Of a stretch of DNA of 17,781 nucleotides, positions 1 to 17,781 are shown piece after piece (the stretch's first letter is position 1; each line of letters opens with the position of its first letter). This DNA is from a virus. The notes beneath the pieces are model-generated. The model saw only the letters and a program-made list of their open reading frames with translations. It had not been told where the DNA came from and did not search any database. The stretch is taken from the IMG/VR virus record IMGVR_UViG_3300045988_022071; one strand, 5' to 3'. Position numbers and translations under genes: made by a program.

Positions 1-142
1 TTTGCTTCTTTGTCTTGTTGTTTTCTGTTTTGTTTTCGTCTTTTTTATTGCTGGTTTTTTGTGTTGTTTTGTCTCGTGTTTTGGGCGCGTGGTTTTTTTG
101 TTTTTTTGTTGTCTTGGCGTGTCGTGTTTTTGGTTGTGCTAT
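1..142. repeat. Left inverted terminal repeat (ITR) of a linear genome
   Basis: The reverse complement of 17639-17781 matches 1-142 base for base, apart from one homopolymer indel (T7 at 93-99 versus the complement of A8 at 17682-17689). Identity ends after '...ggttgtgctat' (left pos 142). The repeat lies exactly at both window ends. Confidence 0.95.
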
Positions 143-2573: not shown

Positions 2574-3845
2574 CTAGCCGGCGATGTATCTGCGTATCTC
2601 CCATCGGCTCGCCATATTCATCTCACCGGACGCGGCGAACAGATTCGGGCCATTCCCCGGCCCCCCATGCGATAATGTTTCGTCCTTGCCGTCACCGGTG
2701 AACATTTCCACATGGTCCCATGACTGCGTGTATGCCCCCCAGTCCAGCAACAGCAAATCGGCGGCGTGTGCCATGCGGATGGCGTCGGATACGCTTGTGT
2801 CAGAGCTACCGCATACGCGCGTACCCTTGCCTGCCATCTGCCCCGTCCATGTACCCACGTCGAGACCCAACACATCCTGATATGCACGCCAACAGACCGA
2901 ACTGCAATCGCCATACCCGCTTGAATCCGGGTCCAACCGTCCTGCCCCCTGCGAGTAAGCGTATTTGCCGATTCGTGAACTCAACCATTCCACAACCCTC
3001 GCCGCATCCTTGCTACCGCTGCCCGAGCCTGAGCCGCCGCCAGTCTGTCCACCGCCCGGCTTAGTGGATTCGGAAGTCTTATATACCCATGTCTGCGCGG
3101 AGCTTTTCATGAAGACGGAAACGGCACTCCCGCTGTAAAGGATAAGGTTGTCGCCTTGCAATTGTATCCATGCGGTGCTGCCGGGCTTTCCGTCGATACC
3201 GGGTCGGTCGCCTCCGGGCGTGTCGGACGGTTCGGAGGTTTGGCCGAAGTCGGGCGGCGCGGAAGTGCCATCCCATGCGTTCAGGAGGTTATATGCGGTG
3301 GTGTACCGATTGCGGTATTGCCCCAGCACGCCGTCCGCCAAGATTGTCGTGTAAATCAGCTCAAGCGTGGCGGTGGCCGAGCATGACGCGAGTACGCGCT
3401 GCGCCTGTGCGGGCGACTGGTGGTAAGCGCACGCCCACATGATACGCTCTTTGACATTATCGGACGGGAACCCGAAATTGGTCATGGTTGACTGGTACCC
3501 GTCCCAATCCGCCTCCCATTGCGCCTCTTGAAAAGCGTGGTTTTCGTCGCGCTGCGCCCACGTCTTCCACGCATTGCCTTCGGCGGTGGATAGGTAGCGC
3601 GATGTCCAGTTGATGGTATTGGCCTGCACTTGCTGGGCTAATGTGGGTGCTGCCGTAGCGAACGTCGTCCATCCGTCCGGGTCTGCGGTGCGTCCGCGCT
3701 CCAAAAGATTCCGGGCACGATTGCCATACCATTGCATCATGCCCATAGTGATTGCGTCAACGTAATTGCACGCGCCCCAATCGCAATTGCTTTCCACGGT
3801 GCCGATTACGTACATCGCATAATATGCCGTATTGTCCATAATCAT
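2574..3845 (-). CDS. Tail-associated peptidoglycan hydrolase, phi29 gp13-like: N-terminal lysozyme-like domain, Gly/Ser linker, C-terminal NlpC/P60 peptidase
   Basis: 423 aa. The N-terminus 'GTVESNCDWG...GMMQWYG' parallels phi29 gp13 'GNMQSES...GLVQWTP'. The linker is 'GGGQTGGGSGSGSGS'. The C-terminus has 'GYGDCSSVCWRAY' (Cys) and 'WDHVEMFTG' (His), typical of NlpC/P60. Confidence 0.8.
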   Translation of the reverse strand: MIMDNTAYYAMYVIGTVESNCDWGACNYVDAITMGMMQWYGNRARNLLERGRTADPDGWTTFATAAPTLAQQVQANTINWTSRYLSTAEGNAWKTWAQRDENHAFQEAQWEADWDGYQSTMTNFGFPSDNVKERIMWACAYHQSPAQAQRVLASCSATATLELIYTTILADGVLGQYRNRYTTAYNLLNAWDGTSAPPDFGQTSEPSDTPGGDRPGIDGKPGSTAWIQLQGDNLILYSGSAVSVFMKSSAQTWVYKTSESTKPGGGQTGGGSGSGSGSKDAARVVEWLSSRIGKYAYSQGAGRLDPDSSGYGDCSSVCWRAYQDVLGLDVGTWTGQMAGKGTRVCGSSDTSVSDAIRMAHAADLLLLDWGAYTQSWDHVEMFTGDGKDETLSHGGPGNGPNLFAASGEMNMASRWEIRRYIAG

Positions 3846-3896: not shown

Positions 3897-5357
3897 TCAT
3901 TCTTGGCCGATAGGGCTGAAGCTCTGGGGTGTAATCCAGCAATTGCCGGACAACGTACCGCCGCCGACGACGCCGGTTATGGCCAGATCGCCATCGTCCA
4001 AGTGGGCAAACGCCTGCTGATTGCCCGCATTGCCCAGAATCATGATGAAATTATCCCCAAGGTCGATGAACTTCGGCAGCTTCGCAATGGTACCGGTCGG
4101 ACTGGAGGCGGTGAACTTCGCAGTGAGCGTCACCACGCCGCCCGAGAAACGCCAGTGAAGCTTACCCGAACAGCCGCCGGTCATAGGCACTTCGCCGCAA
4201 AGCTCACCCGCGCTCGGCTCGCAATCGCCCGCAATGGTCGAGGCGAGAATGCCGGCGATGTAATTCGCGCCGTCCTCATTGTAATGGGGGTCGTTCTTGT
4301 TGGCGAACCAATCGGGATGGCCCATGCCGAGCGTCCACGTCCATGGATGCCATGCTAGGCCATTCGCCGCCGCCGCCGATGCGATGCCGTTCATCGCCTG
4401 AGCGTTCGCATACGGAATGCCCGCATTGTCCCAGAGGAAAATGGCGTGGGCCGAAGCGTTCGGAAAATTCCGGCTCACACGCGACCCGGTACCCAGCAGC
4501 GCGTCGAAGACGCCTAACGCCGAACTGTACGTGTCGCCGGTATCGTTCCTACCGCCGCAGACCACCACGTACTTGACCTTCTTGCGGGCGTCGACATCCA
4601 TTGCGGAAAGCGCCTCGCTAGCGAGAGTAAGGAACGTCTTGCCCCCGTCGCCCGCCTTGCCATAGCCACTGGCGTTGTTGGCGAACACATGTAGGTTGAG
4701 TCCCAGCTTCGACGCGACACGCTGGGGGATACGCTTGCTTTCGGCGAGCGCGACACCTTGCGGCTGATAGCCGGTGCTCACACTGTCGCCAATCCACACC
4801 AGCTCGGTAAGGTCGGTGGTCACGGCGGCGACGGCGTTCACTGAGGTCTGCGCGGCGGCGGCCGTCGACTTCGCCATACCGGCGTCGTCCTTCGCCGCGG
4901 TGGCGGTGGAGTTGATGCTCGCCGCCGTACCGGAATACCCGCCTAATTGCAGATAACGACCATCCGACTCGCCCTTGGTGTACACGGAGCCGGCATCCAC
5001 CTTGCCTGCGAGGGCGCTGGAATCGGCCTTGCCGTTGATGGTGGTCAGCAGATTGCGCGCCGTGACCGCGGAGGTGATGCCAAGTTCGCCGAAATAGCCG
5101 TCCAATTCGGTAATATCGGTCTTATTGGCCTGTGCAAGGCTCAAGGCGTCATCGGCTGTGGTCTTCGCCTGACCCGCCGCCGTGTTCGCATTGTTCGCCG
5201 CCGCCGTCGCCGTGGTGATATCGGTCGCGTTCCTGTACATCTGCGCATCGATTCGGCTCATATCCGCGGTGTAATCGCCACGCCATGACGGCTTGTCATC
5301 CGGGCTGTCGCCGAATTGGCTGAGATTATAATGAGGGGTTTTGTTGAGACTACTCAT
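3897..5357 (-). CDS. Tail fibre / appendage protein with central SGNH (GDSL) esterase domain
   Basis: 486 aa from the ATG at 5357, with RBS GAGGAA upstream. The track ORF extends to 5468, but that extension looks non-coding. The N-terminus 'TPHYNLSQFGDSPDDKPSW' is fibre-anchor-like. An Ala/Thr-rich segment carries 'KADSSALAGKVDAGSVYTKGESDGRYLQ' fibre repeats. SGNH block I is 'LVWIGDSVSTGY' and block III is 'VVVCGGRNDTGD'. A block V-like 'NDPHYNEDG' is present. The C-terminal ~110 aa looks beta-rich. Confidence 0.75.
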   Translation of the reverse strand: MSSLNKTPHYNLSQFGDSPDDKPSWRGDYTADMSRIDAQMYRNATDITTATAAANNANTAAGQAKTTADDALSLAQANKTDITELDGYFGELGITSAVTARNLLTTINGKADSSALAGKVDAGSVYTKGESDGRYLQLGGYSGTAASINSTATAAKDDAGMAKSTAAAAQTSVNAVAAVTTDLTELVWIGDSVSTGYQPQGVALAESKRIPQRVASKLGLNLHVFANNASGYGKAGDGGKTFLTLASEALSAMDVDARKKVKYVVVCGGRNDTGDTYSSALGVFDALLGTGSRVSRNFPNASAHAIFLWDNAGIPYANAQAMNGIASAAAANGLAWHPWTWTLGMGHPDWFANKNDPHYNEDGANYIAGILASTIAGDCEPSAGELCGEVPMTGGCSGKLHWRFSGGVVTLTAKFTASSPTGTIAKLPKFIDLGDNFIMILGNAGNQQAFAHLDDGDLAITGVVGGGTLSGNCWITPQSFSPIGQE

Positions 5358-5511
5358 GGTGAGGTTCCTCGCTTTCAATACTACGGGCGGGCATGTCCAC
5401 CCGGACACTATTATAATCATCGGAAGTGGGCGCGTCCAATTGCGTGGCGGTAAGACCCGTTTCCTCATACTGGCTCAATCCGTAATGTTGAGTATGTTTG
5501 GAAGCCGTCAT
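5350..5511 (-). CDS. Small ORF (53 aa) carrying a second copy of the fibre N-terminal motif
   Basis: Hand translation gives MTASKHTQHYGLSQYEETGLTATQLDAPTSDDYNSVRVDMPARSIESEEPHHE. It is below the track's size cut-off. There is an ATGA start/stop overlap with the upstream frame, and its stop overlaps the fibre ATG. 'TQHYGLSQY' parallels 'TPHYNLSQF' of the fibre. Confidence 0.4.
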   Translation of the reverse strand: MTASKHTQHYGLSQYEETGLTATQLDAPTSDDYNSVRVDMPARSIESEEPHHE

Positions 5512-10310: not shown

Positions 10311-12047
10311 TCACTTTCCGCTGACCACGGTCACGCTCTGCTTGCCGGACACGCCGAACAGCGTGGCGGTAATGCCGGAGGTGCCGGCCGCGACACCGGT
10401 GACGGCACCCGACTCGGACACCGTAGCGAACTCCGGCATGGCGGAAGCCCAAGCGGCCTGCATGGTCACGTCAGCCTTGCGTCCGTCAATCATGGTCGCC
10501 ACGGCAGTCGCCCGTACCGTCTTACCCGCAGCCACCGCCGGGACCGTAACGGCAATCGACGCGATAATGGACGGATTGAAGCCGATGACGCCATCGCCGA
10601 CCACCGACACGTCCAATGCGGCGGACACGGTGCCCGGCACCTCCGGCGTCTTGGGGCTGGTGTACAGCGCGGTGGCCGTGACCGGGATGATGGTATTCGG
10701 TTCGTCAAGGCCGACGACCAGCACGCCGGTAGGCGAGATGTACGTGTAATCACTCTTGGGCTTCGCGGTATCACCGATGGCATACCTGACCGCATCCGAA
10801 CGGAACGTAGCCGTGCCGTCATTGGTGATGGCCGTATCCGCGGTGACCTGCACCGCGCCGCCACGAGCCACATCGACCGGAGTCTTCGAACCACCGCCGT
10901 ACATGGCCAGCTTAAGCTGGAACGTCGGCGCCTTGGCCGTGGTATCGGTCGGGGCCACCGTGTCCGCAGAGGAACCAGCGCCGGTCCAGAACATCACGGC
11001 CGGGGCGAAGCCGGACACCGAGACGATGTGCTGGACATGCAGATAATGGTTGACCGAGTTGATGTTCACCGGGTTCGTCTGCTGGGTCATCTCGTTGATG
11101 ACGGGAATGTCGATGAGGAACTTATCGGTGGTGAGAATGGCCTGCACGCCATCCATGCCGAACCGGTCCTGCGGGATGACGATGATTCGGTCAATGGTCG
11201 GCTCGGCGTCCGTCCGCTGGAACACCGTGGCCAGACCCTGTACGTCAAGCGCCGACTTGACCTCGGGCGAGCAGAACAATACGAGCTCGTCGGGGCGGGC
11301 GAACGTCGGCATGTGCCGCGCATTGTATCGCGTACTGACGAACTTCAGCGTATCGGCCCACGCGCGAATCTGCCTCAGCATGTCGCGCGCGTCGGTTTCT
11401 GAACTGCCCATGTTGTTGAGGTCATTGGCCATATGGACACGCCAATAGCCGCCGAGCTTCGCATACTCGACGAACTGATGACACATGGCCTCAAAAAGGT
11501 CGACTTCGGCCGCGTTGTAGCACGAGGTGAGAATCTGCGAGGTGAGCGACGCCAGGCCGTTTTCGGACGTAAACGCACGCTGCAACGTCCTGTCGTCCGT
11601 GGTGGCCGGATACCAGTGGGCAAAATCCAGCCGGTGATACAGCGAATCGACGTCGACCTTCCACTTGCGGAAGTTATCCGCGCCGAGATATTCCGCATTC
11701 GGGTCGTACACTTGCGCCAACGGCATGCCCACGGCAATTTCCTGCCACGTATCGCCATACGCCTGCGAGGCCCGCTGGAAAACGCTCAATGGGTTGTTCC
11801 ACCGCCATGTGTTGACGTACGTGCCACCGATACGGTTGACCAGCGCCGAGTAGAACTCGTTCTTAAGCTGGGTGCTGGACATGAGCGTGGCCATCTGCCT
11901 GTCCATGTTCATCTGGGTAGCGGAGGGCATGCGCCGTTGATATTCAGGAGACGCCTCGTTACGAATCATGTTCAGAATCTGGGCGTTGTTGAATTCGGTG
12001 AGCGGCCTGAGCTGCTGCTTCGGCGTCACCACGGGGGTAGTTGACAT
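10311..12047 (-). CDS. Major capsid protein, phi29 gp8-like, with C-terminal tandem Ig-like (Big_2-type) domains
   Basis: 578 aa. 'ILNMIRN', 'NEFYSALVNRIGG', 'NNPLSVF' and 'YNAAEVDLFEAM' parallel phi29 gp8 'IVNAIRN', 'NDFITSLVDRIG', 'NNPLKKF' and 'YNSAEVDEYEYM'. The last ~85 aa fit a Big_2 pattern ('ATVSESGAVTGVAAGTSGITATLFG...SVTVV'). RBS AAGGAG sits 7 nt upstream. Confidence 0.9.
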   Translation of the reverse strand: MSTTPVVTPKQQLRPLTEFNNAQILNMIRNEASPEYQRRMPSATQMNMDRQMATLMSSTQLKNEFYSALVNRIGGTYVNTWRWNNPLSVFQRASQAYGDTWQEIAVGMPLAQVYDPNAEYLGADNFRKWKVDVDSLYHRLDFAHWYPATTDDRTLQRAFTSENGLASLTSQILTSCYNAAEVDLFEAMCHQFVEYAKLGGYWRVHMANDLNNMGSSETDARDMLRQIRAWADTLKFVSTRYNARHMPTFARPDELVLFCSPEVKSALDVQGLATVFQRTDAEPTIDRIIVIPQDRFGMDGVQAILTTDKFLIDIPVINEMTQQTNPVNINSVNHYLHVQHIVSVSGFAPAVMFWTGAGSSADTVAPTDTTAKAPTFQLKLAMYGGGSKTPVDVARGGAVQVTADTAITNDGTATFRSDAVRYAIGDTAKPKSDYTYISPTGVLVVGLDEPNTIIPVTATALYTSPKTPEVPGTVSAALDVSVVGDGVIGFNPSIIASIAVTVPAVAAGKTVRATAVATMIDGRKADVTMQAAWASAMPEFATVSESGAVTGVAAGTSGITATLFGVSGKQSVTVVSGK

Positions 12048-12597: not shown

Positions 12598-14058
12598 TTA
12601 TAGCACGAAAGTATGGCCACTGTCATTACGATGGCGAGACCCCGGCAGAAACCGGTCATAAGAGATGGGGGCGGCGCGATGCACACCACTCAACCGCATC
12701 ACTGTGCCGCCGTCTTCCTCTACGCCGCAATATTTGCGATTGCCGAGAATACGAAGTTTTTCGTAGGTGTGGTCGTTCTTCCATGCGCCCAGCTTCCTGT
12801 CGTCCGTTTTGATTCCCGTGGGCGCATCCAGCCCCTCCAATATCATGCCGTCCGTGTCGGCGTAGAGCACACGTTCGGCGTTCGCATTCATTGCACGGGA
12901 GAGTATCTGCCGCCCGTAAGCGTTGACATAGGCGGCGGTCGGCAGCCATGCCAGTGAGTTGGTCGACTCGGGTCGTTCCACGGTAAAATCCACTCCGCCA
13001 TCCGTGGACGGCTTCGGATGCAGCATGGGCCGGTAGAGCGATGCCCCGAACTTCCCTACCAGCGAATTCAACAGCAGTTTCGCCATCTGCCTCCGTTCCC
13101 CGGTCGCGGTCTGCTTTACGCGAAACCACTTGTCCACATACTCACGGTAGAGGCCGTGCGACTTGCGGAATTTCCAGCCGCCGACATAGTCCCACACGTG
13201 GACGTCATAGTTTTCCGCAAGCGTCTGCCAATCCACATCCGTGACCGGCATGGTGACGACACCGAGCGTACTGTCCAAGCGTTCGCCCTCATACCCCCAT
13301 ACGGGCAAGATGTTGGTGAGCGTCGACGTCTTCCCCGTCTTCAGTTTTGCGTCAAACGCGACGACATCGATATGCAGCGGATAATCGTCATCATCTCGAT
13401 ATTCCCCGTCATACCATACGGGGGCACCTACCGGCATGGGCATATCGCACATGACGCTCGGATAAAGACTGTTTACGTCCCAGCTCCTGCAATCCCGGTA
13501 TTCACCCGGCTTGCTGTGTACTATCGCCCCATAGTAGGCGGGACGCATCCGGCGATAATCCTTCTTGTCCAGTGGTGGAAAACGGCGTTTGAACCCGGCA
13601 TAATCCCCGTCGATATAATCGGTCATCGCCATGGACGCTATGGTGGCGCCCCTGAGATTCAATGCGGCGCATTCCTGCGCGATGTTCCACGTGGTTTCCA
13701 AGTCGGAGGCTCCCCCGAACGTCTCACGTGAGACGTTTAACCCATCATCGCGCGTGATATTGCGCACGTCCAGAAAATCCACGGTGATGCCGCCCATACG
13801 CACGCGGAAACTGTAGAAGTGGCCGCGAATGTTGAACGTCCCCCATACGCCGTCCTTGCTGGGGTTCGGTTGCAACGGAAGACGTTTCAGTAGTTCGGCG
13901 GCTATGGGCTTGATATCCTGCCATCCGTGGGCACACCATACGCGCGTATGATAATCGAGCATGGTGAGACGGATGACGGCAGAGGCCGTTAACGATTCCA
14001 CACCGTCATCCGTCAATAGCGTTGCACCGTCTGTCGCCGCCGTTCGACGCTCTTTCAT
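12598..14058 (-). CDS. Protein-primed family-B DNA polymerase (phi29 gp2-like, DNA_pol_B_2 type)
   Basis: 486 aa. Motif A is 'WDVNSLYPSVM', motif B is 'KLLLNSLVGKFG', motif C is 'VLYADTDGMILEG', and the KxY region is 'LGNRKYCG'. 'WKFRKSHGLYREYVDKW' parallels phi29 'LKFKATTGLFKDFIDKW'. RBS AGGATGGAG. The gene is adjacent to the candidate terminal protein, and the genome has ITRs. Confidence 0.92.
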   Translation of the reverse strand: MKERRTAATDGATLLTDDGVESLTASAVIRLTMLDYHTRVWCAHGWQDIKPIAAELLKRLPLQPNPSKDGVWGTFNIRGHFYSFRVRMGGITVDFLDVRNITRDDGLNVSRETFGGASDLETTWNIAQECAALNLRGATIASMAMTDYIDGDYAGFKRRFPPLDKKDYRRMRPAYYGAIVHSKPGEYRDCRSWDVNSLYPSVMCDMPMPVGAPVWYDGEYRDDDDYPLHIDVVAFDAKLKTGKTSTLTNILPVWGYEGERLDSTLGVVTMPVTDVDWQTLAENYDVHVWDYVGGWKFRKSHGLYREYVDKWFRVKQTATGERRQMAKLLLNSLVGKFGASLYRPMLHPKPSTDGGVDFTVERPESTNSLAWLPTAAYVNAYGRQILSRAMNANAERVLYADTDGMILEGLDAPTGIKTDDRKLGAWKNDHTYEKLRILGNRKYCGVEEDGGTVMRLSGVHRAAPISYDRFLPGSRHRNDSGHTFVL

Positions 14059-14070
14059 AACTCCATCCTT

Positions 14071-15015
14071 TTAGTGTCGTGCTGCGCTGGTCATCCATTC
14101 GTCGATTCGCGTTTCCACATCACCTGCATCCGCTTTGGTCTCCCATTTATGCGCCTTATCATTATACCACGTCGCTTCACGCACCACGGCGCTAAAATTC
14201 GTGTTGTTCATCAGCCAGCGTTTTTGACGGTCGGACAAAGACGCGAATTTTTGCGCTACACTGGAGTCGAATGCCTCCAACTGCTGCTCGACTCTACCAA
14301 AATCCGTAGCCCCTTCGCTCTCGGGAATCCACTTGGTTCCCGCGCGTAGCGGCGCGCGTCCTACAAGCCCGGCGTACTCCAATATCTCCTGTTCGAGTTT
14401 CCCGCGGCCTCCGTCTCGTATCATCGCGCGCGCATGGCTTATGCCACGTTCCGTCCCGAATACGTTCGCTCGGCTCCGCGTGAGGTCGTCACGCGCTGAG
14501 CCGCCGACCGTATGAGTGCCCAGTACGTCGAACGGTGATTCGCCCGCGCGTTCCATCTCACGCACTTCGCCCACGGTATAGTAGGCCATGCTCAGCGCAT
14601 CGAATTGCTGAGCACGTTTGATTTTCCGCCGCGCCTCAATCCGGCGGCGCTGCTGCTGACGCAGCGTCTTCCGCCGTTTCGACGGAGCGTTGGCTATTTC
14701 CGCATCGGTAATCAGCGGTCGTACCGCCATCTCCCTGTCGAGTTTTGTAATCCGCACGTCGGGCACGACTTGATACGGTTCGTCATCCCGCGCCCTCAAG
14801 GCTTGCTGTTGTTCCCCGAATTCCTGTCCGATACGTCGCGTGACCTGTTCAAGCTGCTGGGCGCTGAGCTTTCCCAAAAACGTTTCCGTGATTTGCTTGG
14901 GGAGACGTCCGGTACTGTAGTCCCTTACCGCTCGCTCCTGACGTACCTGCGCTGACCTGATTGCGGCATTGCGTTTCAGATTGTTGGCGCGTCGGTTGGC
15001 TTTGCGTTTTGCCAC
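14071..15015 (-). CDS. Candidate terminal protein (phi29 gp3 analogue)
   Basis: 314 aa, GTG start with RBS AAGGAGAGG. The gene is directly upstream of the protein-primed polymerase, matching phi29 gene order 3-2. The N-terminus is very basic ('MAKRKANRRANNLKRN', 'KRRKTLRQQQRRRIEARRKIKR'), reminiscent of the DNA-binding N-terminal domain of the phi29 terminal protein. No clear sequence homology is visible by eye. Confidence 0.5.
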   Translation of the reverse strand: MAKRKANRRANNLKRNAAIRSAQVRQERAVRDYSTGRLPKQITETFLGKLSAQQLEQVTRRIGQEFGEQQQALRARDDEPYQVVPDVRITKLDREMAVRPLITDAEIANAPSKRRKTLRQQQRRRIEARRKIKRAQQFDALSMAYYTVGEVREMERAGESPFDVLGTHTVGGSARDDLTRSRANVFGTERGISHARAMIRDGGRGKLEQEILEYAGLVGRAPLRAGTKWIPESEGATDFGRVEQQLEAFDSSVAQKFASLSDRQKRWLMNNTNFSAVVREATWYNDKAHKWETKADAGDVETRIDEWMTSAARH

Positions 15016-15143: not shown

Positions 15144-15581
15144 TTACTTGCGCTTGTTCTCGGACACCAATTCGAGGTCGAAGAACTTATAGCCGCGGCG
15201 GCTCTTCTTTTCCACCACCTTAAGGGCGAGGGGCGCGGTCCACGTGTCCGGCGTACCGAAAATGGCGAACAGATTGCCAAAAGCGTGCGCCAGCGCGGGT
15301 GAGGCGGCGGCGAAGTCACCCTCTTCTGCGTGAATGACGACGCGGGTAGAAGAGTTAATTTCGCCGGTTTCCTGATTAGCGACCTCGATGGCCTGTGCAA
15401 GCACGTTGGTGACGTGCAATGGTTCATTAAGGTGTTCGTCAACCTTGTCGGCGGTCTGCATGGCGTTGTACAGCGCCATCTTACCGTCCATGGTAGTGGT
15501 GTCGAAGAAGTGGGATACGGCGTTAGTGCCGTTCGCAGAAAAGTTGTTGCCGTTTACTACAGTCAGTTCGTTGTCAGCCAT
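15144..15581 (-). CDS. Putative phage single-stranded DNA-binding protein (lactococcal-phage SSB-like family; phi29 gp5 analogue by position)
   Basis: 145 aa. The pattern 'L.NA...D..L.....V.........ETGE....R.V....EG.....S......I..IFG.P..W..P..LKV.....RG..F..LELV' matches my recollection of the Phage_SSB family. RBS GAAAGG. The gene lies upstream of the terminal protein and polymerase. Confidence 0.5.
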   Translation of the reverse strand: MADNELTVVNGNNFSANGTNAVSHFFDTTTMDGKMALYNAMQTADKVDEHLNEPLHVTNVLAQAIEVANQETGEINSSTRVVIHAEEGDFAAASPALAHAFGNLFAIFGTPDTWTAPLALKVVEKKSRRGYKFFDLELVSENKRK

Positions 15582-15617: not shown

Positions 15618-15923
15618 TTACTCAGAGATGACATCATCTTCAACTACGTTGCCGTTCACCGGCCCCGGATAGTCGACAATGGTATCATCTCCAAACTCAC
15701 AATTAGCCCAATAGATTGCCTCACCCATGCGCGTCTCCTGCGCATGATATTCAGCGGACATGGGCAGCATGTCCTTGTTAATCTTACGGGCCTTCTTCAT
15801 TGCCATGTCAGCCGTACGGCACGCGCCATCTACGACCACTTCGGCGTCAATAAGTTCACCGTTTTCGCCGCGCGTGACGCCATGCACGATACTGTAATGC
15901 TTTGCTCGCTTAATGTATGCCAT
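15618..15923 (-). CDS. Hypothetical early protein; possible phi29 p6-like dsDNA-binding protein by size and synteny
   Basis: 101 aa, RBS AGGTGG. The C-terminal tail is acidic ('VVEDDVISE') and the centre is basic ('MAMKKARKINK'). It occupies the gene-6 position in the order 6-5-(4)-3-2. Confidence 0.3.
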   Translation of the reverse strand: MAYIKRAKHYSIVHGVTRGENGELIDAEVVVDGACRTADMAMKKARKINKDMLPMSAEYHAQETRMGEAIYWANCEFGDDTIVDYPGPVNGNVVEDDVISE

Positions 15924-15946
15924 AATTATACCACCTTATTGTAATG

Positions 15947-16474
15947 TTACTGCTGTTGTGACATTCTTGCGATGTCTGTATCAGTATACCGCGATTCGGT
16001 TAAGTTGTCAAAACAGCGACACGCGATTTTGACGATTGTCTGAGCGAATTCAATGCCATCCCAGACTTTGCACATCTCATAGCATGACGCGCCCTTGACG
16101 TGGCAGACCGCACACCACGCCACCAACGCCGGGGCATAGATGACACCGCCCAGCATCTCAATGTCCTGAGTTCGCGCTAACGCGCCAATACGGGACGTAT
16201 GCGGGGACAACGACAGGCAAACGTCTGCCGCATGTTCGAGGCTGTCAGCAAATGCCACCTGCGCCCCTTGAGGCTCATAAAAGTCCTTGAGCAGTGCTAT
16301 ACTACGGCATAATGTCTCCCAATCGCCCTCACTTCGATTGTATTCGCGCAAGTGCAGATTACGGCGACGGCCACGAATGACACGACGCACACGGTCATCA
16401 TTAAGCACGTCGTCATCAAACCAGTTCGTACGTTTTTCGCTGTTATCAAAATTCAAATTCTTCGAACTCATCAT
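15947..16474 (-). CDS. Hypothetical early protein (175 aa, Cys-rich C-terminal half)
   Basis: Intact ORF with RBS GGAG 5 nt upstream and a TAATG overlap with the upstream gene. I recognise no motif. Confidence 0.6.
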   Translation of the reverse strand: MMSSKNLNFDNSEKRTNWFDDDVLNDDRVRRVIRGRRRNLHLREYNRSEGDWETLCRSIALLKDFYEPQGAQVAFADSLEHAADVCLSLSPHTSRIGALARTQDIEMLGGVIYAPALVAWCAVCHVKGASCYEMCKVWDGIEFAQTIVKIACRCFDNLTESRYTDTDIARMSQQQ

Positions 16475-16677
16475 TAAAACTCCAACATATCTCCAACACT
16501 ATTATAGCCGTCCATCCACATCACCCTCCACAGATAACCGCTCGGGCAACGTTTTGGCGGACTATAAGAACCATGCTTGCCCTTCACGCCCGCACGAAAC
16601 GCGCGTAAACGCCAATAACCATCAGCATCAGGACAATCGCCACACGTCCATGAATGAATCCACCCACGAAAATACAC
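16474..16677 (-). CDS. Hypothetical small early protein (67 aa, Trp-rich, one CxxC)
   Basis: A GTG start at 16677 is preceded by AGGGA and follows the upstream TAG by 1 nt. The track's longer 96-aa version overlaps the upstream gene. T-ending codon bias matches the neighbouring early genes. Confidence 0.45.
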   Translation of the reverse strand: MYFRGWIHSWTCGDCPDADGYWRLRAFRAGVKGKHGSYSPPKRCPSGYLWRVMWMDGYNSVGDMLEF

Positions 16678-16678
16678 G

Positions 16679-16924
16679 CTAATCCCTATCCAAGAGTGGC
16701 GTACGGGCAATGTCGATAGCATCCAGCATAAGACCAGCAACTTGAGAACTATCAGCCGCGTCATATGCGCACGCCGCCATGCAGTTATTAGAACCAGCTA
16801 AAGTACAGAGCCTAACAGTATATCGAAGCTCATACCGATGATCGAGAGGACAATACCACAGACGCACACCACCGCCTGCAAACGGCGACGTAAACACGGC
16901 AACCTTCATATCACGCATACACAT
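16679..16924 (-). CDS. Hypothetical small early protein (81 aa)
   Basis: The ATG at 16924 is preceded by GAAAGGA about 8 nt upstream. The track ORF's upstream extension (to 16993) is Cys/Phe-rich and lacks an RBS. Confidence 0.5.
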   Translation of the reverse strand: MCMRDMKVAVFTSPFAGGGVRLWYCPLDHRYELRYTVRLCTLAGSNNCMAACAYDAADSSQVAGLMLDAIDIARTPLLDRD

Positions 16925-17011
16925 GTTCAGAATCCTTTCACTACTAAAACCAATACAAAAGCCACACATACACCAAGCACATCCAAAAAACAATAAAGTT
17001 TATAAGTAACA

Positions 17012-17242
17012 TTATACCAGCACCACCCTTACCATGCCAATCATAGCATTATCCGTATCGAATGTTGCGTTATCAATATCCACGCTCACATCCATACCAG
17101 AATAGGCGGCACGAACGTGGGATAATACACCATCCAGCGACGCCTTCAGCGACGTCGCATGAAACATGCAACTAGGTTTCACACAGTCAGGCAAAATCTC
17201 AAACACCTGAAAACCATCATCAGTAATAATAAAAAACCACAT
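17012..17242 (-). CDS. Hypothetical small early protein (76 aa, acidic)
   Basis: The ATG at 17242 lies 1 nt after the upstream TGA, with GGAGGGG about 9 nt upstream. The track's longer 164-aa version is a hydrophobic out-of-frame overlap with the upstream gene. Confidence 0.55.
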   Translation of the reverse strand: MWFFIITDDGFQVFEILPDCVKPSCMFHATSLKASLDGVLSHVRAAYSGMDVSVDIDNATFDTDNAMIGMVRVVLV

Positions 17243-17243
17243 A

Positions 17244-17600
17244 TCAGCATTCCCCTCCAAGTTCGACCAAGTCGTATCTGTCACCCTTAACCGCATCAAA
17301 CCGGCCGAGCTTAAGACCATAATCCGCAAGATACTCATTAGCAGAAGCCTCCCAATCAAGACCACAAACGGCTCCGCAAATACCAGTAACCCTCTCAGCA
17401 TCAACATCATGAAATAAATCATAATCATCGCCAACACAAGGGTCAAAATACCAAGAATAATCACCAGTCTGTTGCCATGCGCCCCAACCAGTAATATCGT
17501 CAGCAAATATCAACGACGTCCAACCATCGTCACCTATAACAGCAACCAAGTTAGCCGGTATTTCTCTACCGGAGTGAACGTCAAACCCTATTATATTCAT
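17244..17600 (-). CDS. First gene downstream of the right end: strongly acidic 118-aa protein of unknown function
   Basis: The ATG at 17600 has RBS AAGGAG 8 nt upstream. The track ORF's N-terminal extension into the ITR is a translation artefact. Hand count gives 17 Asp + 6 Glu against 4 Arg + 2 Lys. Confidence 0.7.
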   Translation of the reverse strand: MNIIGFDVHSGREIPANLVAVIGDDGWTSLIFADDITGWGAWQQTGDYSWYFDPCVGDDYDLFHDVDAERVTGICGAVCGLDWEASANEYLADYGLKLGRFDAVKGDRYDLVELGGEC

Positions 17601-17635: not shown

Positions 17636-17644
17636 AGTATAGCA
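17636..17644 (-). promoter_or_regulatory. Candidate extended -10 early promoter (TGcTATACT) straddling the right ITR boundary
   Basis: The minus strand reads ...GGTTGTGCTATACTGTAATT..., with TG at 17644-17643 and TATACT at 17641-17636, about 36 nt upstream of the first ATG. No convincing -35 box is present. The first three bases of the hexamer come from the ITR. Confidence 0.35.
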
Positions 17645-17781
17645 CAACCAAAAACACGACACGCCAAGACAACAAAAAAACAAAAAAAACCACGCGCCCA
17701 AAACACGAGACAAAACAACACAAAAAACCAGCAATAAAAAAGACGAAAACAAAACAGAAAACAACAAGACAAAGAAGCAAA
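17639..17781. repeat. Right inverted terminal repeat (ITR), 143 nt
   Basis: Reverse complement of the left ITR, with one extra A in the A8 run at 17682-17689. It diverges from the left end at 17638. Confidence 0.95.

Follow-up and report, generated by a model that had tools for sequence, protein, structure and literature searches.

A shrunken and probably inactive proofreading domain in the protein-primed DNA polymerase of a phi29-like phage and its relatives

The phi29-type DNA polymerase is the textbook example of one enzyme that initiates from a protein primer, works processively, displaces the opposite strand and proofreads. Does every replicase of this type still proofread? The question is raised by the polymerase gene in IMG/VR virus record IMGVR_UViG_3300045988_022071, whose 17,781 bases (the whole stretch, called the window here) are a complete linear phi29-like phage genome. 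A first reading of the sequence (the original prediction) had singled out nucleotides 13654-14058, which are codons 1-135 of the gene and lie inside the N-terminal domain of its product, as encoding a shortened domain without recognisable ExoI, ExoII or ExoIII motifs, and had suggested a proofreading-deficient replicase. Profile alignments and a predicted structure lend that suggestion indirect support, and we infer from them that the replicase is probably proofreading-deficient. The gene and the landmarks of its polymerase half are as follows:

12598..14058, minus strand: protein-primed family B DNA polymerase, 486 amino acids plus stop (identified by Pfam DNA_pol_B_2, phmmer and AlphaFold2 (AF2)/Foldseek)
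13645..14058, minus strand: N-terminal domain (N-domain), residues 1-138, by profile and model a miniaturised, degenerate phi29-type 3'-5' exonuclease domain
13642..13644, minus strand: T139, the inter-domain linker Thr (phi29 T189)
13462..13479, minus strand: motif A, D194-V-N-S-L-Y199, with catalytic Asp and steric-gate Tyr intact
12850..12864, minus strand: motif C, Y399-A-D401-T-D403, intact

The start codon is judged secure from its sequence context: the ATG at 14058 is the first start past an in-frame stop and lies 12 nucleotides beyond the stop of the upstream open reading frame (ORF), AAGGATGGAG precedes it, and a ribosome-binding site is present. In addition, the identical protein is found on independent contigs, and the polymerases in 80 clusters of close metagenomic relatives are each exactly 486 residues long. 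The polymerase half is readily recognised. Pfam types the protein as family B, organellar/viral type, with a DNA_pol_B_2 score of 120 bits (cutoff 25.8) that covers residues 133-342 only, and phmmer matches it to the phi29 DNA polymerase 1XHX from residue 155 (E 7e-44); both sequence searches are silent on the first 130-150 residues. The regions corresponding to terminal protein regions 1 and 2 (TPR1 and TPR2) lie within a continuous alignment to phi29 residues 206-501 that has no large gaps, a beta-hairpin at 345-361 of the AF2 model occupies the TPR2 position, and the whole-protein model (predicted local distance difference test score, pLDDT, of 90.5) matches phi29 polymerase in Foldseek with a query TM-score (TMq) of 0.84.

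In the 575-residue phi29 numbering, the motif A Asp (D194 vs D249) and the motif C pair (D401/D403 vs D456/D458) are both shifted by 55 residues and the Tyr of the KxY motif (Y443 vs Y500) by 57, much as the original prediction had it (about 55). Its other two length estimates also held: the exonuclease domain, put at about 55 residues shorter than that of phi29, is about 50 shorter as measured from T139 against T189 (138 vs 189 residues), and the C-terminal thumb region, put at about 30 shorter, has 43 residues after the KxY Tyr where phi29 has 75, i.e. 32 fewer. T139 is a reliable anchor for the first of these measurements, being invariant in the 179-sequence survey described below except for one mid-length sequence with Ser.

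Is the N-domain derived from the phi29 exonuclease domain at all? Hidden Markov model and profile-profile comparisons, which the original prediction had proposed as a check, return a homologous N-domain in which the ExoI Glu and ExoII Asn are substituted and the ExoIII Tyr is deleted. Over nearly its full length, the profile built from the short polymerases can be aligned with a canonical one (E 2e-71), and the N-domain by itself aligns in hhalign with the canonical exonuclease-domain profile at a probability of 96% (E 2e-9). Structure prediction and superposition, the second proposed check, agree: the TM-score to phi29 is 0.84 when the whole protein is superposed and 0.64 when the N-domain is taken by itself. 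A separate AF2 model of residues 1-150 has a pLDDT of 90.1 and matches phi29 polymerase with a TMq of 0.63-0.65 and a probability of about 1, although the E-value is weak (4e-3). Its strands and helices follow the order of the phi29 domain, as expected of an RNase H-like exonuclease fold. Among PDB entries phi29 polymerase is the sole convincing match to this model, and since no other DEDD exonuclease matches, the domain must have drifted far; in the BFVD viral structure library only N-domains of protein-primed polymerases matched, the best being that of BadAztec1 (root-mean-square deviation 2.1 Å). On the combined profile and model evidence the N-domain is a true remnant of the phi29 exonuclease domain.

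How much of the proofreading site does it retain? The segments that correspond to the site are as follows:

14023..14031, minus strand: ExoI remnant, D10-G11-A12 (D10 under phi29 D12 and A12 under E14 in joint alignments)
13915..13929, minus strand: ExoII remnant, H44-G45-W46-Q47-D48 (phi29 H-N-L-K-F-D)
13684..13704, minus strand: ExoIII remnant, D119-L-E-T-T-W-N125, at the start of helix 119-132
13759..13770, minus strand: D97-V-R-N100, counterpart of the phi29 D121-S-L-K124 loop, with Asn100 invariant in the clade

The polymerase has no DxE in the first 40 residues, no Nx2-3(F/Y)D and no Yx3D. The first two absences had been noted in the original prediction, and the near misses it listed are where it placed them: 'DDGVE' at 17-21, 'LDYHT' at 34-38 and 'HGWQD' at 44-48. 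In the alignments the ExoI sequence D-F-E-T of phi29 becomes D10-G11-A12-T13, so that the Asp remains and Ala takes the place of the Glu; across the 80 close relatives the residue there is Ala, Val, Thr or Ser. The ExoII Asn (phi29 N62) is replaced by Gly45 in profile alignments, or by His if the alignment is left ungapped, and D48 lies one column away from phi29 D66. The ExoIII Tyr165 and the Kx2h Lys143 both fall inside a deletion of 23-27 residues just upstream of the ExoIII remnant. Phi29 Asp169 is inside the deletion in one profile alignment and opposite D119 in two others; the latter placement fits the equal spacing to the invariant Thr, which is 20 residues both from D119 to T139 and from D169 to T189. 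The segment 'ETTWNIAQECAAL', which the original prediction aligned by eye with phi29 ExoIII, is indeed at 121-133, but the resulting placement of Glu at Tyr165 and Asn at Asp169 is not reproduced by the profile alignments and that alignment is probably wrong. Phi29 S122 and L123, which form the (S/T)Lx2h motif and are ligands of single-stranded DNA, are V98 and R99 here; K143 constitutes the other auxiliary motif, Kx2h. The polymerase thus has neither the ExoI DxE, the ExoII and the ExoIII motifs nor the auxiliary motifs of a DEDDy exonuclease. Of the Asp, Glu and Tyr that would, if conserved at the motif positions, have counted against the original prediction, Asp alone is present, and in the window's own subclade only; Glu and Tyr are not, nor are Asn and Lys. 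In phi29 and Klenow mutagenesis several of these single losses each cut exonuclease activity by orders of magnitude.

Is this condition peculiar to one phage? A profile search of 1.84 billion representative proteins gave 9,979 relatives, the best 150 of which were surveyed, so the sample is biased toward query-like sequences. Among these 150, about 20 clusters of 454-496 residues match the query over its full length, and the other clusters, of 510-670 residues, match only from about residue 120. In the resulting survey of 179 polymerases 116 have DxE[TSA], NxxFD and Yx3D by regular expression; at the aligned positions the 28 short-clade members (454-496 residues) have none of these motifs, and K143 is deleted in all 28. 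Strings in the short clade that satisfy a regular expression (for example 'DGET', 'DYES' and 'YIDGD') proved after alignment to be at non-homologous positions. The BadAztec-like members lack the ExoI strand, the first strand of the domain, entirely. Canonical enzymes with all three motifs include those of the isolates Clostridium phage CI461P1, Eggerthella phage LE1-1 and Curtobacterium phage Prophecy.

The short polymerases are monophyletic in a neighbour-joining tree of the polymerase domain and include those of all the cultured Bifidobacterium phages. The closest named polymerases are those of Bifidobacterium phages BP1, BD811P1-3, BadAztec and BadAargau2 (34-37% identity). Closer still are more than 80 clusters of 83-95% identical polymerases on metagenomic contigs of 17-19 kb, one of which is labelled a Bifidobacterium breve metagenome-assembled genome by one source. 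The sequences suggest that motif loss was ancestral to this clade of 454-496 residue polymerases from Bifidobacterium-type phages. The original prediction had remarked that a deficient phage replicase would be unusual; the trait is not confined to this phage and defines a whole clade that includes cultured Bifidobacterium phages. Loss may also have been recurrent: about 18 metagenomic polymerases of 516-584 residues likewise lack all three Exo motifs (P0139, P0164, P0167, P0174, P0196, P0204, P0208, P0210, P0213, P0215, P0222, P0224, P0240, P0245, P0253, P0255, P0259 and P0261), and their scatter, on long branches among canonical lineages, suggests repeated independent events.

If the editing site has been lost, have other parts of the enzyme changed with it? 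Three parts of the polymerase half depart from phi29:

13054..13080, minus strand: motif B, K327-LLLNSL-V334-G335, with Val as the equivalent of phi29 Y390
12730..12738, minus strand: KxY motif as R441-K442-Y443, with Arg at the Lys498 position
12601..12690, minus strand: shortened thumb, residues 457-486, in which the phi29 thumb-hairpin tip P556-L567 is deleted

In motif B K327, N331, S332 and G335 are kept and the Tyr is replaced by Val334. This Tyr is termed invariant in family B. Among canonical sequences 107 of 116 have it, against 0 of 28 in the short clade, and 9 of 20 motif-less polymerases of intermediate length carry another residue instead (Fisher p = 1e-4 vs canonical). The KxY motif retains its Tyr and has an adjoining Lys (K442), with Arg at the Lys position itself; Lys stands there in 151 of 151 longer relatives against 0 of 28 in the short clade. 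The thumb tip is deleted across the whole short clade, and what the AF2 model shows in its place is no more than a short hairpin (475-485); the post-KxY hairpin and the thumb tip together fall about 32 residues short of phi29. A screen was made for columns conserved to at least 93% in the 116 canonical enzymes and lost in the 28 short ones. It picked out little besides residues of the exonuclease site, K498 and the thumb positions P556, G564 and L567, and the motif B Tyr came just below the threshold. A separate observation concerns motif C, whose first Asp is Asn (YANTDG) in 11 of 28 short-clade polymerases, among them BP1 (L001:2878-4293), BD811P3 (L003:2842-4293), P0094 and P0097; it is Asp in the window protein and in 151 of 151 longer relatives.

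The joint losses at the exonuclease site, motif B, K498 and the thumb tip fit, at the level of sequence, an enzyme that does not shuttle its primer to an editing site. Phi29 thumb residues are described as coupling the polymerase and exonuclease sites (PMC1475753), and the phi29 Y390S substitution reduces nucleotide discrimination to about 3e2 (PMC1976434). The same losses raise the possibility that base selection is weaker too, although the enzyme has likely undergone compensating changes.

If the N-domain does not edit, is it simply decaying? The ratio of nonsynonymous to synonymous substitution rates (dN/dS) was calculated for five gene sequences in ten valid pairings; pairings with L012 (P0083) were dropped, because an indel close to the start makes its codon comparisons invalid. 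It ranges over 0.08-0.19 in codons 1-138 and over 0.08-0.105 in the remaining codons. Among the 80 close relatives the N-domain is 87-89% identical and the rest of the protein 86%. The N-domain is under strong purifying selection, at a dN/dS of about 0.09, and hence functional. Over longer distances the constraint is looser: at polymerase-domain identities of about 37-40%, N-domains of the short clade are 16% identical and those of canonical enzymes 42%. Such relaxed but real constraint is the pattern expected if catalytic constraint has been lifted and a structural role remains. The residues that are invariant in the clade, T139 and N100, and D97, which is nearly so, correspond to phi29 T189 and the loop at 121-125 and not to the old active site. 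In phi29 it is through the D121-K125 loop and T189 that the two halves of the enzyme touch (PMC6351526).

We consider it likely, from the alignments and the models, that the protein is a phi29-type replicase whose shrunken exonuclease domain is catalytically dead and has been kept as a scaffold, with little or no intrinsic proofreading. The phi29 exonuclease domain has roles that could maintain it. It contacts the linker loop and the terminal protein, and together with TPR2, the palm and the fingers it forms the downstream-template tunnel that drives strand displacement (PMC6351526). In the mechanism we propose, replication would start from the terminal protein at the terminal repeats and go on by strand displacement, and the 17.8 kb linear genome would be copied with little or no intrinsic proofreading. 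The N-domain would be retained as a structural part, for the template tunnel and for contact with the terminal protein or the linker, and the trimmed thumb tip would fit the loss of an exonuclease site to which a primer could be shuttled.

Several points weigh against this reading. D10, D48 and D119, at most three Asp, stand at or beside three of the four former carboxylate positions and are 100% conserved among the 80 close relatives; as judged from sequence, some metal could still be bound in the subclade of the window. How the first 25 residues (ExoI) and the ExoIII region align depends on the method used, the role as a structural scaffold is proposed by analogy with phi29 biochemistry, and the tree, a simple neighbour-joining one with no support values, is too crude for counting loss events.

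The first of these points is also the basis of the main alternative, that the N-domain is still an exonuclease, working through a reduced or rearranged site of D10, D48 and D119 (possibly with E121) and giving weak or conditional proofreading in the window's subclade. The joint alignments speak for it, with D10 opposite D12, D119 opposite D169 and D48 a single column away from D66, as do the strong purifying selection on the domain and the presence of the three Asp not only in all 80 close relatives but in 6-7 of 7 representatives of the 'HGWxD' subclade. The ExoI Glu, the ExoII Asn, the ExoIII Tyr, the Kx2h Lys and the equivalents of Ser122/Leu123 are, however, all gone, and invariance among the 80 relatives says little given that nearly every residue is conserved among them. 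Across the rest of the clade each of the three Asp is unconserved, as expected if they are dispensable: of 27 short-clade representatives, 7 retain D48 and about 10 have an acidic residue at position 119. One alignment made D10 look invariant throughout the clade, but a larger and more careful one did not, as in it the 'DG' of other subclades falls opposite residues 17-19. We regard a working residual site as unlikely.

Less probable again is proofreading in trans, by a host exonuclease (for example of the DnaQ type) or an unrecognised phage protein, in which case fidelity would not be reduced. Room for such a protein is left by six small early ORFs and several ORFs of the structural region that have no family match. 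No exonuclease family was found among window ORFs of at least 96 residues in Pfam and PHROG scans, and inspection by eye gave no DEDD-like motif in the small early ORFs. A phi29-type polymerase, moreover, encloses its DNA and is processive from a single binding event (PMC6351526), which leaves little access in trans, and direct evidence for such proofreading is nil. The last alternative is that a misplaced start, a frameshift or faulty assembly hides a normal exonuclease domain and makes the N-terminus look short. Nothing was found in its favour, and it was weighed solely because apparent domain shortening often arises from faulty annotation; it was rejected as having next to no chance of being right, given the start context and independent contigs described above, the constant length of the 80 relative clusters, the 470-483 residue homologues in the same gene order in cultured phages, and an N-domain that folds confidently and evolves under purifying selection.

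The preferred reading, of a dead domain kept as scaffold, means that a clade which includes phages that can be grown in the laboratory has had its proofreading site dismantled and the domain kept, with the motif B Tyr and the thumb tip lost as well. If it holds, the clade is a natural experiment on the non-editing roles of the exonuclease domain, a raised mutation rate is predicted for abundant phages of infant- and adult-gut bifidobacteria, and a small natural exo-minus scaffold becomes available for amplification or sequencing enzymes. A bolder extension is that the clade polymerases are natural low-fidelity (mutator) replicases, having lost both proofreading and the motif B Tyr used in rejecting wrong nucleotides, and that a high mutation supply is part of the gut lifestyle; on present sequence comparisons we offer this tentatively, as possible but doubtful. 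If it were true, the mutation supply might serve escape from host defences or changes of receptor, and would account for the very many metagenomic sequence variants of the phage. More modestly, the enzyme may be of biotechnological use as a naturally compact, exo-minus, strand-displacing phi29-type polymerase.

What kind of genome does this polymerase copy? The features that bear on its replication are as follows:

1..142, no strand: left terminal inverted repeat (98% complementary over arms 1-107/17675-17781 and 100% over arms 93-142/17639-17688)
17639..17781, no strand: right terminal inverted repeat
15144..15581, minus strand: phi29-type single-stranded DNA-binding protein (SSB; Pfam Phi29_Phage_SSB, E 1e-14; PHROG 6243)
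14071..15015, minus strand: candidate terminal protein, 314 residues, with a very basic N-terminus, assigned by position only, directly upstream of the polymerase gene

The inverted repeats, of about 142 nucleotides, contain T-rich runs (TTTTTTTGTTTTTTTG) and internal sub-repeats and are far longer than the 6-nucleotide repeat of phi29. The minus strand carries all recognisable genes of the window, unlike phi29, in which early and late genes are on opposite strands. G+C content falls from 57-62% mid-window to 46-51% at both ends, and AT skew is strong at both ends and opposite in sign. The gene set is that of a phi29-like podovirus. PHROG matches were obtained for terminase (2150), upper collar connector (2038), lower collar (5472), tail (2248) and major head protein (2006), and Pfam Phi29_MCP, phi29_gp9_C and Phage_connector were matched on a contig identical to the window; the genome size and the genes for packaging ATPase, connector, collar, tail and capsid are those of a phi29-like small podovirus (about 15-20 kb). 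No ORF of the window matched a helicase in the Pfam and PHROG scans. Whole-window megablast found no match among 50,697 phage records, which therefore hold no annotated near relative.

The order SSB, 314-residue ORF, polymerase is the same as in phi29 and in the Bifidobacterium phages, where the counterparts of the 314-residue ORF are 28-33% identical and unannotated. From its position this ORF is likely the terminal protein, and with no match to it in Pfam, PHROG or PDB (phmmer) it probably represents a new terminal-protein family. A homologue search with it returned near-identical proteins only, in 672 clusters, and relatives with 85-95% identical polymerases (L009-L011 and L013) differ by 0.2-1.3 synonymous substitutions per site; because of these two observations the micro-diversity of the phage group in gut metagenomes is considered very deep.

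Among the remaining genes, a 523-residue protein (3897-5468, minus strand) has a weak, sub-threshold GDSL/SGNH hydrolase match and a 423-residue protein (2574-3845, minus strand) a weak NlpC/P60 match; both are possible enzymes of the tail or of lysis. The major head protein (578 residues, 10311-12047, minus strand) has a C-terminal extension that resembles Ig-like domains (Big_2; PHROG Ig families). The six small early ORFs (96-175 residues, 15618-17506, minus strand) have no Pfam or PHROG match, and two of them (16474-16764 and 16679-16993) overlap, so some are perhaps not real genes.

How does the window polymerase compare with known systems? The nearest well-studied one is the phi29 DNA polymerase (gp2; PDB 1XHX, 2PYJ and 2EX3), which shares its fold, motifs A and C and TPR1/TPR2, and whose genome is likewise linear with inverted terminal repeats and has an SSB gene and a gene in the terminal-protein position near that of the polymerase. 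The window enzyme differs in its length (486 vs 575 residues), in lacking E14, N62, S122/L123, K143 and Y165, in having Val for Tyr390 and Arg for K498, and in its shortened thumb tip. Much closer in kind are the polymerases of Bifidobacterium phages BP1, BD811P1-3, BadAztec1/2/4 and BadAargau2 (Badaztecvirus and unclassified), which belong to the same short clade (470-483 residues), lack the Exo motifs and the motif B Tyr, and lie in the same gene order of SSB, an unknown protein of 318-351 residues, polymerase, small ORF, capsid and tail. They are more degenerate than the window protein, with no Asp at the D48 or D119 positions, and in BadAargau2 the first strand of the N-domain, present in the window, is missing. 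Public databases label these enzymes merely 'DNA polymerase', a 2024 review covering Badaztecvirus and BD811P1 does not mention exonuclease loss, and no description of such loss in phi29-like phage polymerases was found in a literature search whose coverage excluded most subscription journals; loss of the exonuclease site in a phi29-like clade of gut phages is apparently new to the literature.

Inactivated exonuclease folds that are retained as structural modules are familiar from Pol alpha, Pol zeta and archaeal enzymes of the PolB2/PolB3 type. The principle, of a fold kept after loss of the catalytic carboxylates, is the same for the window enzyme, but they are RNA/DNA-primed cellular enzymes that act with accessory factors and beside other, proofreading polymerases, and the window enzyme is the sole replicase of a small virus. 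Among viruses, the protein-primed family B polymerases (pPolBs) of mavirus-type virophages and the pPolB-helicase fusions of polinton-like viruses have lost exonuclease function, with lower fidelity suggested (PMC11161782), and a recent survey describes the exonuclease domain as conserved in all family B polymerases except that of mavirus (PMC11161782). Those enzymes belong to another lineage, from eukaryotic viruses with other hosts, and in them most of the domain is physically gone and a helicase has been gained, whereas the window polymerase keeps a folded 138-residue domain under selection and matches no helicase. Finally, the engineered phi29 exo-minus mutants (D12A/D66A) still polymerise (PMC6351526, PMC1976434), with weakened strand displacement (PMC6351526). 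They are laboratory point mutants with a full-size domain; the natural short clade has had time to compensate, and its exonuclease domain, thumb and motif B have been remodelled.

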